This document shows, one piece after another, positions 2,179-39,516 of a DNA stretch of 64,000 nt. This DNA comes from Bdellovibrionales bacterium (GTDB taxonomy: Bacteria > Bdellovibrionota > Bdellovibrionia > Bdellovibrionales > JAGQZY01), in the NCBI GenBank assembly GCA_041739665.1, contig JBGSNK010000077.1:11204-75203 (forward strand), given 5' to 3'. How positions within the stretch are numbered: the stretch's first letter is position 1; each line of letters opens with the position of its first letter. The position numbers were made by a program, and so were the translations under genes. Below the pieces are notes generated by a model that did no database searches, had not been told where the DNA came from, and saw nothing but the letters and a program-made list of their open reading frames with translations.

Positions 2179-3048
2179 CTAAACGCCCACTGGATGCCAA
2201 ACTGTTTTGGACTCAGAAAGTGCCGACAAGGGTTCAACACTGAGTTTGGTAAAATCCCACAAGATAACTCTCTTCATATTGTCTACGGCAAGCTTTTGCA
2301 TCTGACAGAGACGATCTTTGTCTGCTGAGGCCACGACCAAAGCGTGAACCTCCATATGAGAAGCCATAGGGGAAGATAACTCTTCGACCGAGCCTGACAA
2401 CAAATTGATCACTCCGTTGGGAAGATCAGAGGTCTTAAAGATCTCCGCCAAATCAGATAGCAACGCGCAGCCCGGCTTATCAAAAATCATGACCAAAGAA
2501 TTGCCAGCACAAAGGGTGCTCGCGATTTGATGGAAAAACAAGTTGAGATTAAACTCTTGATCGTAAACAATTCCGACGACACCCATCGGTTCCAGGGCTG
2601 TGAAGTTATGATAGGGCCCACTGACTGGGTTAATAGTCCCTAAGACTTGATTGAGCTTATCGGCAAAGCCCGAATAATAAAGAAGAGTCTCGAGACTTTT
2701 ATCGACTTGCTCATGGGCCTGATTTTCTTGGATACCAAGAAGCTCTTGCAACTGAGCCACTAAGTCAAGACGTCGGCTGGAAAGCATTTCAGCCATGCGA
2801 TAAAGAATTTGACCCCGATTGTAGGCTGTTTTTTTCTGCCAGCTTGGCAAACCAGCTTGGGCCGCCGTTACCGCAGTACGCAGGTCTTTTCGCGAAGCAC
2901 GACAAACATAAGAGTGAAGCTTTTGTGAATTGTGCAAATGTACAGGCTCGCTGCGGCCGGATTCACTGCGCGGAAATTCTCCGTTGATAAAAAGCTTGTT
3001 AGTCTTTGGGACGAGAGGTGATGGGGTGGTTGTTCTATTGAAAATCAT
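2179..3048 (-). CDS. aldehyde dehydrogenase-like protein, N-terminal (cofactor-binding) half only
   Basis: KLFINGEF and the GVVGIV...CAGNSLVM region align by eye with residues ~50-300 of the neighbouring 510-aa ALDH. The protein stops where the ELGGKS/catalytic-Cys region would begin. There is an ATGA overlap with the upstream ALDH. Confidence 0.6.
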   Translation of the reverse strand: MIFNRTTTPSPLVPKTNKLFINGEFPRSESGRSEPVHLHNSQKLHSYVCRASRKDLRTAVTAAQAGLPSWQKKTAYNRGQILYRMAEMLSSRRLDLVAQLQELLGIQENQAHEQVDKSLETLLYYSGFADKLNQVLGTINPVSGPYHNFTALEPMGVVGIVYDQEFNLNLFFHQIASTLCAGNSLVMIFDKPGCALLSDLAEIFKTSDLPNGVINLLSGSVEELSSPMASHMEVHALVVASADKDRLCQMQKLAVDNMKRVILWDFTKLSVEPLSALSESKTVWHPVGV

Positions 3049-4577
3049 GATTGCACCTCCACATAGGGCAAAAGGCCATGACGGCCTCCCTCGCGACCCC
3101 AGCCGCTTTCTTTATATCCACCAAATGGTGAAGCAGGATCAAATTTATTGTAAGTGTTCGCCCAAACAATACCGGCTTTAAGACCCAAAGCTGTTTTCTG
3201 AATTTTAGACGCCTTTTCAGACCACACGCCCGCAGCCAAGCCATAAGCGGTGTCATTGGCTTTAACAATGGCCTCTTGTGGAGTGCGAAAGGTGGAGATC
3301 GCCAATACGGGACCAAAAACCTCTTTGCGACAAATAGACGCCGAGGATGATACATTGTTAAAAAAGCAAGGTTTGTGGAAGTATCCCTCTTTAGGAAGGG
3401 TGGTTGCGCTTGCAGAAAAGTACTCTAAACCTTCCATTTGGGCTTCGCGAACAAAACCAGTAATCTTGTCCAACTCCACCTGAGAGTGAATGGCACCGAC
3501 ATCTGTATTTTTATCCAAGGGATTGCCGACTCTAAGAGAAGACATCCGAGCCTTCAATTTTTTAACAAAAAGATTTGCAATGGACTCTTCTAATAAAAGT
3601 CTGGAACCTGCACAGCACACATGACCTTGATTAAAGAAAATACCATTCACCACGCCCTCTACAGCTTGATCGAGCGCCGCATCTTCATAAACAATTTGGG
3701 CGGACTTTCCACCTAACTCCAAAGTCAGCTTGGTGTCTTTGCCAGCCAGGGAGCGGGCAATTATTTTACCCACCTCGGTCGAACCCGTAAATGCCACTTT
3801 GTTAATATCGGGATGATTGGTTAAACGCGCCCCAGTTTCTCCAGCACCAGTGACGATATTGACAACCCCGGGAGGCAATCCGGCCTCTTGGCATATCTCA
3901 GCTAACAAGAGAGCAGTCAGGGATGTGGTCTCAGCAGGCTTGAGAACAACGCAATTTCCAGTCGCCAGTGCAGGTGCAATCTTCCAGGCGGCCATCAAAA
4001 GTGGGAAATTCCACGGAATCACCTGAGCCGCAACACCAAGGGGACGAACATTTTTTCCAGAAAAAGCATAATCCAACTTATCGGCCCAACCCGCATTATA
4101 GAAAAAGTGAGCCGCGGCAAGTGGAATATCCACATCGCGTGATTCTTTGATAGGCTTTCCATTGTCGAGTGTTTCAAGCACAGCCAATTCACGAGAGCGA
4201 TCTTGAATCAATCGGGCAATGCGAAACAAATACTGAGCTCGCTCAGAACCGGTCGTCTTTGACCAAACTTGTTCAAAGGCTTTTCTTGCCGAACGAACCG
4301 CCTTATCCACATCTTGTTCAGTGGATTCCACAACCTTAGATAATGCCAGCCCTGTAGCTGGATTGAGCGTATCAAAAAATTGTTCTCCTGTGGACTCTAC
4401 AAACTCCCCATTGATAAACAATTTTTGTGTCTCGGCAATCTTCACAATATCGGTGGATTCAAGGCTTGGCGCATATTGAAAGGAAAATCCTTTCTTTCCA
4501 CTCTCCTCTGTCTTGTGAGGCTGGTTATCTGAAGACGGGGATACCTTATCTTTTTTTCTCATAAATTTTTCTAGCAT
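3045..4577 (-). CDS. NAD(P)+-dependent aldehyde dehydrogenase
   Basis: 510 aa with ALDH hallmarks: VIPWNFPL, FTGSTEVGK, LELGGKS, FFNQGHVCCAGSRL (catalytic Cys). Confidence 0.9.
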   Translation of the reverse strand: MLEKFMRKKDKVSPSSDNQPHKTEESGKKGFSFQYAPSLESTDIVKIAETQKLFINGEFVESTGEQFFDTLNPATGLALSKVVESTEQDVDKAVRSARKAFEQVWSKTTGSERAQYLFRIARLIQDRSRELAVLETLDNGKPIKESRDVDIPLAAAHFFYNAGWADKLDYAFSGKNVRPLGVAAQVIPWNFPLLMAAWKIAPALATGNCVVLKPAETTSLTALLLAEICQEAGLPPGVVNIVTGAGETGARLTNHPDINKVAFTGSTEVGKIIARSLAGKDTKLTLELGGKSAQIVYEDAALDQAVEGVVNGIFFNQGHVCCAGSRLLLEESIANLFVKKLKARMSSLRVGNPLDKNTDVGAIHSQVELDKITGFVREAQMEGLEYFSASATTLPKEGYFHKPCFFNNVSSSASICRKEVFGPVLAISTFRTPQEAIVKANDTAYGLAAGVWSEKASKIQKTALGLKAGIVWANTYNKFDPASPFGGYKESGWGREGGRHGLLPYVEVQS

Positions 4578-7011: not shown

Positions 7012-7069
7012 GAGAAATTTCACTCTTTGCTATCCACAAGTTATATAAATGAAAGAGTTCTTCTCCCGC

Positions 7070-7200
7070 TGGAGAGTTTTCAAGTTTCGATTGTATCTTG
7101 AGTCTCTGGCAAGCTGGAAGCGTTTTCACCCGCAGGGTGAAATGCCAGCAAGGGCATGGAGCCCGGCCTCAAGAGACAATCGAAACTTGAAAACTCTCCA
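7070..7200. repeat. structured palindromic element, copy 1 (candidate novel ncRNA or repeat family)
   Basis: 7070-7094 is the exact reverse complement of 7176-7200 (25 bp), extended by 7 bp (7096-7102/7168-7174). The interior holds P2 CTGGCA/TGCCAG with the bulge AGCTGGAAGCGT, the apex TTTCACCC-GCA-GGGTGAAA, and P3 GGGC-ATGGA-GCCC. The architecture is shared with 37291-37410. Confidence 0.7.
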
Positions 7201-7328
7201 CCAAGCAGAAAACTATTTGAGTGTCTCGCTTTGGAACGATCAACTGCTCTATTTTTCAATTGGCAGTATGGGCTTTTTGCAGGCTCAACTCTTTGCTATC
7301 ATTGAGTAAATTGATCGGGGGATGGTCT

Positions 7329-21773: not shown

Positions 21774-21827
21774 TGGAGGTGGTGAGTGACTTCTCACCCC
21801 TACGGGGATTCGAATTCCTCCACCACC
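21774..21827. repeat. tRNA-Cys-derived chimeric mini-tRNA-like palindrome
   Basis: 21800-21827 is an inverted copy of the 28 nt at 21899-21926 (T-arm plus 3' acceptor strand of tRNA-Cys). 21774-21784 (TGGAGGTGGTG) is a direct copy of 21895-21905 (acceptor 3' strand + discriminator + CCA). Confidence 0.8.
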
Positions 21828-21894
21828 GGAGCGGAGCGACCAAACAAATAGACGGAATGCAAATGGGAAGTGGCAACGACCAGGACTGGTGAAA

Positions 21895-21968
21895 TGGAGG
21901 TGGTGGAGGAATTCGAATCCCCGTAGATGGATTTGCAGTCCACTGCCTAGCCACTCGGCCACACCACC
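21895..21968 (-). tRNA. tRNA-Cys (GCA), CCA encoded
   Basis: Reverse complement: GGTGGTG-TG-GCC..GGC-A-GTGGA-CTGCAAA-TCCAT-CTAC-GGGGA-TTCGAAT-TCCTC-CACCACC-T-CCA. It has a 7-bp acceptor stem, a canonical T-loop and anticodon GCA. 74 nt. Confidence 0.9.
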
Positions 21969-36407: not shown

Positions 36408-36914
36408 TTAGGCTTCAATTCCAAAGATGGCTTTGACTTCGTCGCTTTCCAATTCTTTCTTGGTGGTAGCTAATGAAAGCTCGGTGATGAGCAGGGTACG
36501 AGCTGTGTCTAGCATCTTACGCTCCCCAAAACTCAACTCCTTATCCACTTTAAGTAAGAACAAATCGCGAAGAACCTCAGCGATTTCATAGACAGATCCT
36601 GTTTTGATTTTTTCCATGTACTCGCGATAACGACGGTTCCAGGTTTGATTGTCAATTTTGACATTTTTTTCCTGGAGGATACCCAAAACCTTAGAGGCCT
36701 CTGTTTTAGAAATGATCGGACGTAATCCCACATTTCTCACATTGTTTCGGGGAACCATAATTTTCATACCAGTTTCAAGGATGCGTATAGAGTAAAAAAC
36801 TTGTGTACACCCCATCATCTCTTTAGTATCGACAGCGACGACTTCACCTACTCCATGACCGGGATAAACCGCATTGTCCCCTACTACAAAAACATCGTCC
36901 TTCTCTTGACCCAT
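36408..36914 (-). CDS. carD: CarD-family RNA polymerase-binding transcription regulator
   Basis: Start at MGQEKDDVF (GGAGG upstream). GDNAVYPGHGVGEV... is the CarD/TRCF RID-like N-domain. 168 aa. Confidence 0.85.
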   Translation of the reverse strand: MGQEKDDVFVVGDNAVYPGHGVGEVVAVDTKEMMGCTQVFYSIRILETGMKIMVPRNNVRNVGLRPIISKTEASKVLGILQEKNVKIDNQTWNRRYREYMEKIKTGSVYEIAEVLRDLFLLKVDKELSFGERKMLDTARTLLITELSLATTKKELESDEVKAIFGIEA

Positions 36915-37132
36915 GGATCCTCCATTTAGCGAATGCGACTTTATAACATTTATGACACACTTCGACAACAACAAAAGTGACAATTCTTGCTCCATTGCAC
37001 CTTTGATTTCTGTAATTATTTCAGCAGTGTAGAAGACTTAATCAACTTCTCACTCCAACTCAAAGCAGCACCCTCGCCGCCCTGGCACAAAATTTAAAAA
37101 GCTCAATCTCAAAACAAATATTTGTGATCACT

Positions 37133-37171
37133 TTTTTAACAAGCCTGTAGGAACTTCAGGCTTGTTAAAAA
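37133..37171. repeat. 15-bp perfect hairpin (T5-led, A5-trailed), not a canonical terminator
   Basis: TTTTTAACAAGCCTG 37133-37147 and CAGGCTTGTTAAAAA 37157-37171 with a 9-nt loop. Neither strand has a U-tract after the stem. Confidence 0.6.
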
Positions 37172-37290
37172 GAGATCGTCATTTAAAACAGTGACTCACT
37201 TGAAATGACATCAAGGCATAGGGGCTTGAGATTTTGCTGCAACAACATCCTTTCTACCGAACACCCAGGATAAGCTTTTTTATTTAAGGT

Positions 37291-37410
37291 AGGTTGTGAA
37301 GCTGTGAGTTCTTGCGAGGCTCCAGGAAGCAGGATGCGTTTTTTGCCCGTAGGGCAAAAATCCTGGCTGGCAGGAGCCTGTCCTTGCAAGAACTCACAGC
37401 TTCACAACCT
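37291..37410. repeat. structured palindromic element, copy 2 (candidate novel ncRNA or repeat family)
   Basis: 37291-37315 is the exact reverse complement of 37386-37410 (25 bp). The interior holds P2 CCAGGA/TCCTGG with the bulge AGCAGGATGCGT, the apex TTTTTGCCC-GTA-GGGCAAAAA, and P3 (CT)GGC-AGGA-GCC(TG). An extra outer inverted repeat lies at 37268-37282 / 37421-37434. Confidence 0.7.
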
Positions 37411-37428
37411 GGCAGCAAACTAAAAAAA

Positions 37429-39516
37429 TTATCCAATAAGGTCTTTGTTTTTTTCTGTGAGGTGTTGGCGCAAAGACGCATTGTCTTTGCGGCGCAACTC
37501 GGGGTCTTGTTCAATAATGGTGAAGGCCGCCTCGCGCGCCTGCTTAAGAATATCGATGTCGCGAATGAGGTTCGCCATTCTGAAGCCAGGCAAGCCGGAC
37601 TGGCGTGACCCTAAAAATTCGCCAGGGCCACGAATTTCCAAATCCGCTTCTGAGATTTGAAACCCATCTTGACAGGTTTCCATCATATCAATGCGCGCTT
37701 TGGATTCGGGCGATACAGCAAAGCCCAAAGATAAAATACAATAACTTTTGTGTTCGCCACGCCCCACTCGTCCGCGCAATTGATGCAATTGGGACAAACC
37801 AAATCTCTCGGCATGATCAATCCAAATGATATTGGCGTTAGGCACATCCACGCCCACTTCGATCACAGTTGTAGCCACAAGAATTTGATATTCGCCAGAG
37901 TAAAAGGCCAACATCACTTCGTCTTTTTGTTCGCTCTTCATCTTGCCGTGGACCAATCCCATTTTGTACTGGGGCAATTCTTTAGAAAGTTTCTCGAACT
38001 CTTGAACGGCCGAGGTCAGTTCGATTTTTTCGCTCTCATCGACAAGGGGAAACACAATATAAGCTTGCCGACCCTTTTCAATTTGTTCGCCGATAAATTT
38101 TAGAATCTGAGCTCGCTTACTTTGAAAGGTCACTCGGGTTTGTACGGGTTGTCTTCCAAGCGGCATTTCGTTAATAATAGACACATCCAGATCCCCATAG
38201 ACAGTCATAGCCAAACTGCGAGGAATCGGAGTGGCAGTCATCAATAAAAAGTGAGGGCTGAGGCCTTTGTTCTTCAACTTTTTTCTTTGTTCCACACCAA
38301 AGCGGTGTTGCTCGTCGACGATTACCAATCCTAAGTTATGAAACTGCACACCCTCTTGGATCAGCGCGTGGGTGCCCACCACTAAATCAAACTCACCCAA
38401 AGCGATTTTTTCTTGAACCTCTGTTTTCTCTTTGGCTTTCATGTGGCCACTGATAAAACCAACTCTCACCCCAAGGGGTCCGAGGAGTTTTATTGCTCCT
38501 TTAAAATGCTGTTTGGCTAAAATTTCTGTGGGCACCATAAGAGCGACTTGATAGCTATTTTCTATGGCCAGCAATGAGGCCATCAACGCCACCAAAGTTT
38601 TTCCACTGCCCACATCCCCTTGTACTAAACGGTGCATGGGGTGCGAACTGGTCAGGTCTGTGCAAATTTCATCAAAGGCACGAGTCTGAGCTCCTGTGAG
38701 CGAAAAGGGCAGTTTGGACTTCATTTGCTCTACTAAATGGGTGCGTTTTTCAAATTGAAGAGCCTTATCTTTGCGAACGCCCCGTCTTTTTGCAGCCAAA
38801 AGCAATTCAAGCCAAAAAAACTCTTCAAAGATCACTCGACGATGAAAGGAAGAGCGCAGCTCTATAAAGTCCTCGCCAGCCCCTTCGGGGGGCATATGGA
38901 TATGTTTGATTGTCTCCTCATATCCTGGGAGATTGTACTTCTTTAAAACCCATTGGGGAATTCGCTCTTGAACGCCCTTCACTTCACCACTTTCTATGGC
39001 CAAAGTGGCCTGGCTCAATATTTTACGCCATCTTGTCGTGCTCAGACCGTCCGTTTCCGAGTAGATCGGCACCAGTTCGTCTTTGAGATCTTCATCATGA
39101 CGAATGTCCTGAATATCGGGATGATTGAATTCGATTTGCCCTCTGTAATGGGAAACCTTTCCAATCACACGGACCTGTTGGCGAGGCTGAAAGCGTTCAA
39201 AATAGCCACGGTAGGGGACGCGAAAAAATTTGCAGTGGATCACTCCAGAGCCGTCGCGCAGAGTCACGTCCCAGACCTTTTTTCGCGTACGCCCCAATTG
39301 ATAGCTGCTGACTCCCACAACTTCGGCTTGAATGCTGACAATTTCATCGGGGCGAAGGGAGGCTATATTTCGAGCCACTCTGCGGTCTTCATAGGCACGG
39401 GGGTAGTTTTGCAAAAGGTCTCCCAATGTGGAAACACCTTTTTTACGCAAAAGTGCACCAAGTTTTGGACCAACCCCTTTTAGAAACTGAATCGGAGTGT
39501 CAATATGAAGAGACAT
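37429..39516 (-). CDS. recG: ATP-dependent DNA helicase RecG
   Basis: 695 aa with a wedge/OB N-domain, GDVGSGKT Walker A, the DEQH box and the TATPIPR motif. Confidence 0.95.
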   Translation of the reverse strand: MSLHIDTPIQFLKGVGPKLGALLRKKGVSTLGDLLQNYPRAYEDRRVARNIASLRPDEIVSIQAEVVGVSSYQLGRTRKKVWDVTLRDGSGVIHCKFFRVPYRGYFERFQPRQQVRVIGKVSHYRGQIEFNHPDIQDIRHDEDLKDELVPIYSETDGLSTTRWRKILSQATLAIESGEVKGVQERIPQWVLKKYNLPGYEETIKHIHMPPEGAGEDFIELRSSFHRRVIFEEFFWLELLLAAKRRGVRKDKALQFEKRTHLVEQMKSKLPFSLTGAQTRAFDEICTDLTSSHPMHRLVQGDVGSGKTLVALMASLLAIENSYQVALMVPTEILAKQHFKGAIKLLGPLGVRVGFISGHMKAKEKTEVQEKIALGEFDLVVGTHALIQEGVQFHNLGLVIVDEQHRFGVEQRKKLKNKGLSPHFLLMTATPIPRSLAMTVYGDLDVSIINEMPLGRQPVQTRVTFQSKRAQILKFIGEQIEKGRQAYIVFPLVDESEKIELTSAVQEFEKLSKELPQYKMGLVHGKMKSEQKDEVMLAFYSGEYQILVATTVIEVGVDVPNANIIWIDHAERFGLSQLHQLRGRVGRGEHKSYCILSLGFAVSPESKARIDMMETCQDGFQISEADLEIRGPGEFLGSRQSGLPGFRMANLIRDIDILKQAREAAFTIIEQDPELRRKDNASLRQHLTEKNKDLIG

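Follow-up and report, generated by a model that had tools for sequence, protein, structure and literature searches.

Directly behind the recG stop codon of an uncultured Bdellovibrionales bacterium lies a long palindrome with a branched interior, and the locus raises the question of whether this structure belongs to recG, as a terminator or another 3' feature would, or is an element in its own right. The stretch of DNA analysed here, which we call the window, covers 64,000 nt (assembly GCA_041739665.1, contig JBGSNK010000077.1, positions 11,204 to 75,203), and the palindrome occupies window positions 37268-37434. To judge from the sequence, the source organism is an uncultured member of the Bdellovibrionota; its RecG protein is 60% identical to RecG of Bdellovibrio, 81% identical to that of the nearest relative and close to 70% identical to those of a group of relatives. 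Positions 37268-37434 hold one member of a family of dispersed palindromic repeats about 170 nt in length, and a short 5' extension starting near 37225 may belong to it as well. We propose, with a probability of about 0.5, that this repeat is non-autonomous and selfish and resembles REPINs or miniature inverted-repeat transposable elements (MITEs). The repeat family itself was previously undescribed and has been seen so far only in a clade of uncultured Bdellovibrionota.

A preliminary description of the window, made from its letters, had recognised two such palindromes and had taken them for copies of the same fold. The one beside recG is referred to below as copy 2, and the other lies further upstream:

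7052-7218, plus strand: copy 1 of the family, with perfect arms at 7070-7094 and 7176-7200 and the core at 7103-7167.

Covariance model R1, run with filters off, finds only these two copies in the window, 30 kb apart; copy 1 reaches 102 bits and its interior is recognisably like that of copy 2. The letters common to both were turned into a pattern (AAGCNGGANGCGTTTT, a gap, GGAGCC), with which one genome per species was scanned. The scan returned 38 loci, 32 of which are chance matches without a flanking inverted repeat, while the other 6 are real and all belong to the Bdellovibrionales metagenome-assembled genome GFS_7426. Each of these six has the same core of about 70-75 nt inside a perfect, copy-specific inverted repeat of 18-32 bp, and one of the six is cut off by a contig end. 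Neither window copy was returned, so the genome of the window must lie outside the species collection. A tighter pattern applied to the metagenomes of the Joint Genome Institute (JGI) gave 14 contigs, 12 of them real and representing 7 distinct copies, and model R1 added one more full copy (copy B of contig L170, 3645-3760) as well as a degenerate one. Copy B, which R1 found and the pattern did not, keeps both GGA motifs and has one letter changed elsewhere. Altogether we recovered 15 full copies and 2 that are partial or degenerate; of all these the window holds 2 and GFS_7426 holds 6, the others being on metagenome contigs, and the full copies come from at least three genomic sources. The repeat breaks assemblies: contig L001 (Logan SRR28170464_23153), whose recG is identical to that of the window, ends inside the element core about 100 nt past the stop codon, and contig L153 of GFS_7426 and several metagenome contigs likewise begin or stop inside copies.

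Assignment to a known repeat family, an outcome for which the preliminary description had left room, was not obtained. At gathering scores, Rfam 15 passes only two tRNAs in the window and nothing on the element, and a permissive search of 37000-37700 places only generic long-hairpin matches on it (mir-498 with 30 bits against a cut-off of 85, SSRC8_2 with 21 bits against a cut-off of 72). Copies at four other loci have no Rfam match, and in the literature we found no account of such a repeat or RNA motif in Bdellovibrio. Nothing like the element was found in phage genomes, plasmids or viral contigs; a 14-base bulge pattern gave, among the matches listed for viral contigs, only chance ones, none of them with flanking inverted repeats.

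The organization of copy 2, from its 5' extension to the end of recG, is as follows:

37225-37267, plus strand: asymmetric 5' extension, weakly conserved, with ACCGAACACCCA at 37256-37267 as its best block.
37268-37290, plus strand: outer left arm, A/T-rich and imperfectly paired, GGATAAGCTTTTTTATTTAAGGT.
37291-37315, plus strand: 5' arm of the long stem (P1b), 25 nt, perfectly paired with 37386-37410.
37316-37319, plus strand: 5' strand of P1a, GAGG, with G37316 against T37385 as the non-Watson-Crick position just under the junction.
37320-37321, plus strand: junction J1/2, CT, invariant in 14 of 14 aligned copies (columns C26 and T27).
37322-37327, plus strand: 5' strand of P2, CCAGGA, whose partner is 37361-37366.
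37328-37339, plus strand: conserved asymmetric bulge of 12 nt, AGCAGGATGCGT, with GGA at 37332-37334.
37340-37360, plus strand: apex hairpin, TTTTTGCCC-GTA-GGGCAAAAA.
37361-37366, plus strand: 3' strand of P2, TCCTGG.
37367-37381, plus strand: J2/3 (CT), the P3 hairpin GGC-AGGA-GCC (37369-37378) and J3/1 (TGT).
37382-37385, plus strand: 3' strand of P1a, CCTT.
37386-37410, plus strand: 3' arm of the long stem (P1b), 25 nt, perfectly paired.
37411-37434, plus strand: outer right arm, GGCAGCAAACTAAAAAAATTATCC, ending in 6 nt that form, on the minus strand, the last codon (Gly) of recG and its TAA stop.

The sequence bears out this drawing, most of which goes back to the preliminary description. 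The two 25-nt arms are exact reverse complements, and with GAGG and CCTT included they extend to 29 nt at 97% complementarity, the pair G37316/T37385 being the sole exception. Only these two sites in the window carry the 25-mer, and 100 shuffles gave 0 matches with up to 3 mismatches allowed. P2, the bulge and the apex can be read directly from the letters at the positions first assigned to them, and P3 is present with the T/T mismatch just outside its hairpin. The outer A/T-rich inverted repeat (37268-37285 / 37417-37434) shows 78% complementarity over 18 nt, and within the bulge the two GC dinucleotides (37329-30 and 37336-37) could form a mini-hairpin of 2 bp with the loop AGGAT. The calculated folding energy is -83.1 kcal/mol for the plus strand (z -9.3 versus shuffled sequence) and -76.6 kcal/mol for the minus strand (z -10.7).

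Across the family this fold is kept, either by selection or by a copying mechanism. In alignment A2, which holds 14 distinct copies trimmed to the core and 25 bp of stem, the proposed three-way junction places 93.3% of the cells in standard pairs, compared to a shuffled expectation of 65.9% and to 35-49% when the partners are slid by 1-3 columns. Both sides have changed in 36 of the 44 pairs, and none of the five measures used was reached in any of 500 shuffles. Every helix drawn in the preliminary description is supported by such double changes, namely the long stem (P1) in 25 of 25 pairs, P2 in 4 of 6, the apex in 6 of 9 and P3 in 1 of 4, with 96% of the cells paired in P2 and 97.6% in the apex. 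The GGC/GCC pairs of P3 show no or hardly any variation, and its closing pair (columns 78/90) is G-C or A-U in other copies and T/T in copy 2. RNAalifold, run independently on A2, arrives at the same three-way junction and adds the GC...GC pairing of 2 bp in the bulge, which would display N-GGA-N as a small loop. The junction has two like loops about 46 nt apart, GC-N-GGA-N-GC in the bulge and GGC-A(U)GGA-GCC in P3, and the bulge letters AAGC-GGA-GCG-TTTT are invariant in A2, being letters that the search patterns required. Because P2, the apex and P3 covary, we infer that the element is selected, or copied, as a folded single strand; recognition as double-stranded DNA is disfavoured, since it gives no reason for covariation of the inner hairpins.

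Folded as a single strand, each copy gives one long hairpin, in which an imperfect outer stem is followed by a usually perfect stem of 17-32 bp. Inward of the latter come one mismatched position, 4-7 further pairs and the conserved three-way junction, composed of P2, the bulge of 11-12 nt (AGC-N-GGA-N-GCG), an apex hairpin of A/U plus G/C and the P3 hairpin (GGC-A(U)GGA-GCC). The elements measure about 170 nt (range about 127-182 nt), with arms of about 45-57 nt that contain scattered outer mismatches. Most copies have one mismatched position 4-8 bp under the junction and then a perfect run, usually of 17-32 bp. Perfect runs vary from 10 to 32 bp across copies, and the stem of exactly 25 bp, presented initially as a shared trait, is a coincidence of the two window copies. 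The branched tip would serve as the recognition module for a trans-acting protein, either a host factor or an enzyme that mobilises the element by acting on its folded single strand, while the sole task of the stem would be to pair and to hold the tip in place.

Core and arms differ strongly in their conservation. Within GFS_7426 the identity is 0.74-0.94 for the core versus 0.32-0.60 for the arms, and between copy 1 and the copy of L168 it is 0.94 versus 0.48. The arms of the metagenome subgroup are 76-96% identical, mostly amid different flanking sequence, and those of copy 2 share 60-68% identity with them. BLAST of the flanks matched only the left flanks of L170 copy A and L173; orthology also seems likely for L170 copy B and L163 and for the left flank of L164, which is cut. 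Closely related copies differ by double changes that keep the pair, including transversions such as G-C to C-G, and the single mismatches found in some copies (e.g., L164 and L165) indicate that any correction of the arms is not instantaneous. As judged from these alignments, the arms are homologous, the stem sequence may vary freely provided that it still pairs, and the junction sequence is constrained. The idea of the same fold built on different helix sequence holds, with the reservation that the helix sequences are diverged homologues and not unrelated to one another. The 5' arm is rich in G and poor in C in 13 of the 14 copies (A2 columns 1-25: G 122 versus C 45), which says nothing about the folding strand because the symmetry of a palindrome produces this on both strands.

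At the recG locus, comparison of the carD-recG spacer with that of relatives, which had been suggested as a check, identifies the element as an insertion. The neighbourhood recG ... carD-gltX-uvrB-uvrC is kept in four relatives with RecG identities of 70-81%, and the 87 kb examined around recG in these genomes contain no match to model R1. The recG-carD spacer is 248 nt in L188, where the two genes are directly adjacent, compared to 433 nt in the window. The absence of the element from this region of the relatives makes copy 2 a lineage-specific insertion. The preliminary description had allowed for a lineage-specific accident, in the form of unrelated orthologous spacers combined with a lack of other genomic copies; the relatives indeed do without the element, but many other copies exist. 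The recG-carD region is in general variable in the clade, with 0-4 unrelated genes inserted (L002 12113-16436; L187 12089-14693; L189 10712-12046), which encode a ParB-like nuclease, a methyltransferase, a DUF3419 protein and a subtilisin-type peptidase. The carD reading frame of the window as listed (36408-36995, minus strand) encodes 195 aa versus 168-172 aa in relatives; its true start probably lies about 25 codons downstream, in which case the spacer would be about 500 nt.

The other copies occupy a variety of intergenic positions. Copy 1 and the L149 copy are located between convergent genes, copy 2, the L144 copy and L170 copy A (after ftsY) between tandem genes, and the copies of L142 and L150 between divergent genes, with the element in either orientation relative to the genes. 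The neighbours of copy 1 are, according to Pfam, an AmpG-like gene of the major facilitator superfamily (plus strand) and a convergent ABC-F gene (minus strand), and the surroundings of recG encode CarD, GltX and an HD-domain protein. Read-through from recG or ftsY would produce the strand opposite the bulge strand, and read-through from the AmpG-like gene would produce the bulge strand. Such mixed contexts and orientations point to a dispersed repeat and not to a cis-regulator of one gene class. The metagenome copies were also considered as orthologues of the recG or ampG loci and rejected as such: tblastn finds no recG, carD or AmpG-like gene adjoining them, and flanks that seemed similar are the element's own ends.

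The outer boundaries follow from the same comparison of copies. In copy 2 and the metagenome subgroup the element runs from GGAK-T-rich-TAAA to TAAA-A/G-rich-ATCC; copy 1 and the copies of GFS_7426 have neither these ends nor such A/T-rich outer arms. The outer inverted repeat that overlaps the recG stop is hence real and part of the element, as had been proposed, with the same ends found at unrelated loci. The recG reading frame covers 37429-39516 on the minus strand, with its stop codon at 37429-37431. RecG ends in ..IG* among its homologues as well, so the GGA-TAA beneath the outer right arm is ancestral; the usual element end ..ATCC coincides with the end of recG, and the insertion is flush with the stop codon. 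On the 5' side, the metagenome subgroup and copy 2 continue for about 45 nt of weakly conserved sequence. Positions 37225-37267 can be aligned to what precedes the element on its 5' side in L170 (copy A), L173 and L164 (e.g., AACCAAACACCCA), and the inverted copies A and B of L170 have about 56 nt in common past the hairpin, on the side of the 5' extension only.

As a consequence of this position, recG transcripts would pass from the stop codon straight into a hairpin of about -77 kcal/mol, which is predicted to form a 3' barrier to exonucleases and/or a substrate of RNase III. No U-tract or T-run, as an intrinsic terminator has, follows the stem of copy 2 on either strand, and scans for terminators and promoters around both window copies gave nothing above chance level. 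Actual termination of recG would take place at a separate structure:

37133-37171, between the element and carD: 18-bp hairpin, AACAAGCCTG.../...CAGGCTTGTT, with a run of T on one side and a run of A on the other.

This hairpin scores only 14 bits with model R1 and lies outside the element; from its sequence it resembles a bidirectional terminator and is probably the real terminator of recG.

Several known systems invite comparison. REPINs are doublets of repetitive extragenic palindromic (REP) sequences mobilised by RAYT transposases. The new element is like them in being a long extragenic hairpin of two inverted halves with compensatory changes in the stem, an asymmetric 5' tail and no target-site duplication. 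In REPINs, which are thought to act as folded single strands, conserved sequences are found at the hairpin ends and the spacer is variable with compensatory changes (PMC3116915). The pattern of conservation is thus reversed, since REPINs keep their ends, i.e. the base, and vary in the middle, whereas here the tip is conserved and the stem variable. The new element is also longer (about 170 nt versus roughly 70-110 nt), has a branched three-way tip, and its copies in one genome form no near-identical cloud. With RAYT and IS608 TnpA sequences as queries, tblastn gave matches no better than chance in about 170 kb, a small part of the genomes, and in the same small part no csrA, RNase III or RAYT gene was found. 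The best of these matches, a weak one similar to IS608 TnpA near the copy of L165/L166, was dismissed as spurious, as it lies in a family-2 glycosyltransferase gene.

The Correia elements of Neisseria, the enterobacterial ERIC/IRU sequences and YPAL of Yersinia are intergenic palindromic repeats of 100-170 bp, often situated just past stop codons and co-transcribed, whose long RNA hairpins alter mRNA stability or are cut by RNase III. These MITEs have conserved terminal inverted repeats, usually a target duplication of TA or similar, and similarity over their whole length. The new element differs in that no target duplication has been seen and that divergence is faster in the arms than in the central part, which consists of the conserved three-way junction. 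As to terminal inverted repeats, recurrent ends are seen in copy 2 and the metagenome subgroup and are absent from copy 1 and the GFS_7426 copies. Integron attC sites are imperfect palindromes that fold as single strands and are recognised by structure more than by sequence, some of them with branched variable tips. Size and imperfect palindromy are similar, but attC sites have their conserved sequence at the base (R and L boxes, extrahelical bases) and a variable tip, and they form arrays between cassettes beside an integrase, whereas the copies described here are solitary with a conserved tip. Sponge RNAs of the CsrB/RsmZ type share the GGA motifs in short hairpin loops; the new element differs in having only two such loops, no promoter or terminator of its own, a mixed orientation and a long perfect duplex.

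The composition of the helices bears on the nature of the folded strand. The modelled helices contain 14 G.U versus 8 A.C mismatches and the full arms about 24 versus about 30, transversion mismatches being the most frequent kind. With G.U about as common as A.C across the family, the single G-T pair in copy 2, read at first as a weak sign of plus-strand folding, carries no weight for the choice of strand. In both window copies the bulge strand is the C-rich strand, and both have the same orientation; among loci of at least 6 kb with clear skew, orientation relative to the local GC skew is mixed (5 versus 2) and not significant. The plus-strand GC skew of the window is negative in every 8-kb block of 1-64000 (-0.02 to -0.09), and because recG, carD and gltX are in addition on the minus strand, the minus strand is probably the leading one throughout.

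The reading of the element as a non-autonomous, selfish repeat has to be weighed against a number of observations that do not favour it. No direct repeat common to both flanks was seen in the 8 copies compared, so that no target-site duplication is visible, and no transposase or other partner protein for the element was found. G.U pairs are rare and the wobble tolerance typical of RNA is absent, which fits poorly with selection purely at the RNA level. Every GFS_7426 copy has different arms, a picture unlike that of a REPIN population or of a classical MITE after a recent burst. Arms that have changed at half of their positions and are still perfect over 24-32 bp are poorly explained by ordinary compensatory evolution and may need a copying mechanism; the routes may be strong selection on old or master copies, or a copying step that remakes one arm from the other. 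Finally, all but two family members were found via patterns that require the bulge and P3 letters, which makes the conservation of these letters partly a matter of construction, and the copies were counted on genome fragments and not on whole genomes.

Among the other explanations, we regard as unlikely a multi-copy structured non-coding RNA or cis module in which the two GGA loops would be a bipartite site for a dimeric protein such as CsrA and the duplex a rigid handle or RNase III site. GGA in a short hairpin loop is the established recognition mode of CsrA/RsmE; in the element this motif occurs twice inside a conserved junction, the core is conserved above the arms, and covariation is strong. 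The orientation to neighbouring genes is nevertheless mixed, with no conserved promoter, transcripts reading through from recG and ftsY would bear the opposite strand, and G.U is no commoner than A.C. Moreover, there are just two GGA sites per element, csrA is lacking in the 170 kb searched, close relatives live without the element, and the GGA letters were demanded by the search patterns. A further alternative is a folded single-stranded DNA site, for instance a structure-specific recombination or priming site or a substrate of HUH-type enzymes comparable to attC, IS200/IS605 ends or REP, the arms of which would remain perfect through templated correction inside the hairpin. Its pairs are almost all Watson-Crick, with G.T no commoner than A.C, the inner hairpins covary, orientation is independent of transcription, and both window copies sit on the C-rich strand in the same orientation. 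We still hold such a site to be distinctly improbable, given the mixed orientation with respect to GC skew, the lack of arrays and of any integrase, recombinase or HUH gene adjoining a copy, and a conserved tip in place of the conserved base of attC and REPIN sites.

An origin of the core from an IS110-family element of the bridge-RNA/seekRNA type, or targeting by one, is suggested by contig L170 (JGI Ga0210009_1013627), where a Transposase_20 gene (2579-3220) lies between copies A and B, with a degenerate hairpin (2072-2255) that contains AAGCGGATGCGTTTTCGCCCAAAGGGCGAAAT just upstream of the gene. Eleven loci with intact related transposases (63-77% identical) have no R1 match at E up to 10, however, and their ends look unrelated; the L170 gene is 5'-truncated, no such gene is found near any other copy, including those of the window, and the contig is perhaps repeat-rich or chimeric. 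The intact relatives without the motif largely refute this origin, which we consider very improbable. The region itself (L170 1700-3763) holds two full inverted copies and one degenerate copy within 2 kb around the truncated, IS1111-like transposase gene, which is bracketed by a 50-bp inverted repeat of 96% identity (2242-2291 / 3523-3572), and L173 agrees with the L170 flank until halfway through the left arm of the degenerate hairpin, where the two part; the arrangement may reflect nested repeats, a rearrangement or a chimeric assembly, with an association to the transposase that looks incidental. Just as doubtful is that the arms are acquired sequences, spacer-like guides or inverted target copies, on a constant scaffold. 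The arms of the window and GFS_7426 copies appear unrelated at first sight, the outer left arm mirrors the recG end GGATAA..TTTTTTTA, and part of the left arm of the degenerate L170 hairpin is present in L173, which lacks that hairpin. The homology of the arms across loci, at the identities given above for the metagenome copies and for these versus copy 2, nonetheless rules out spacer-like or target-derived arms for the well-sampled subgroup; no arm has a match elsewhere in the window or in viral contigs, and the recurrence of the ends GGAK.../...ATCC makes the mirror of the recG end intrinsic to the element. An ordinary intrinsic terminator or a chance palindrome, for which a very stable hairpin directly after a stop codon would speak, has a negligible probability: the U-tract is missing, chance would not be expected to produce a 25-mer repeat, divergent genes flank some of the copies, and the existence of a family with a conserved branched core refutes it. 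The initial view that the element is no simple terminator or 3'-UTR feature is thereby upheld.

The window contains one further palindrome that was examined as a possible family member. A perfect 28-bp inverted repeat at 21800-21927 lies at a tRNA-Cys gene (21895-21968, minus strand); its arm 21899-21926 corresponds to the 3' part of the tRNA (T arm and acceptor strand), which is repeated in inverted form 71 nt away as the arm 21800-21827. Model R1 gives the region about 30 bits on both strands, as for any generic hairpin, and it was not accepted into the family. The repeat may have been left behind when DNA was integrated or rearranged at the tRNA gene.

In summary, the structure behind recG introduces a new structured motif, with 36 of 44 pairs covarying and no counterpart in Rfam, from a little-studied phylum known mostly via metagenomes. 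Its layout is unusual in combining a conserved branched tip with a fast-evolving yet perfectly paired stem. Because the element abuts stop codons, it can mislead the annotation of 3' ends, and it likely affects the stability of neighbouring mRNAs such as that of recG. Beyond the selfish repeat that we favour, it is conceivable, though rather unlikely, that the element is a structured nucleic-acid module in which the three-way junction with its two identical GGA loops on a long duplex recruits a dimeric protein, the complementarity of the stem being kept by a copying step that renews one arm from the other, either in the course of mobilisation or through repair inside the hairpin. If this were the case, the family would represent a new mechanism of single-strand transposition or repair, or a new RNA-protein system spread across the intergenic regions of predatory bacteria.

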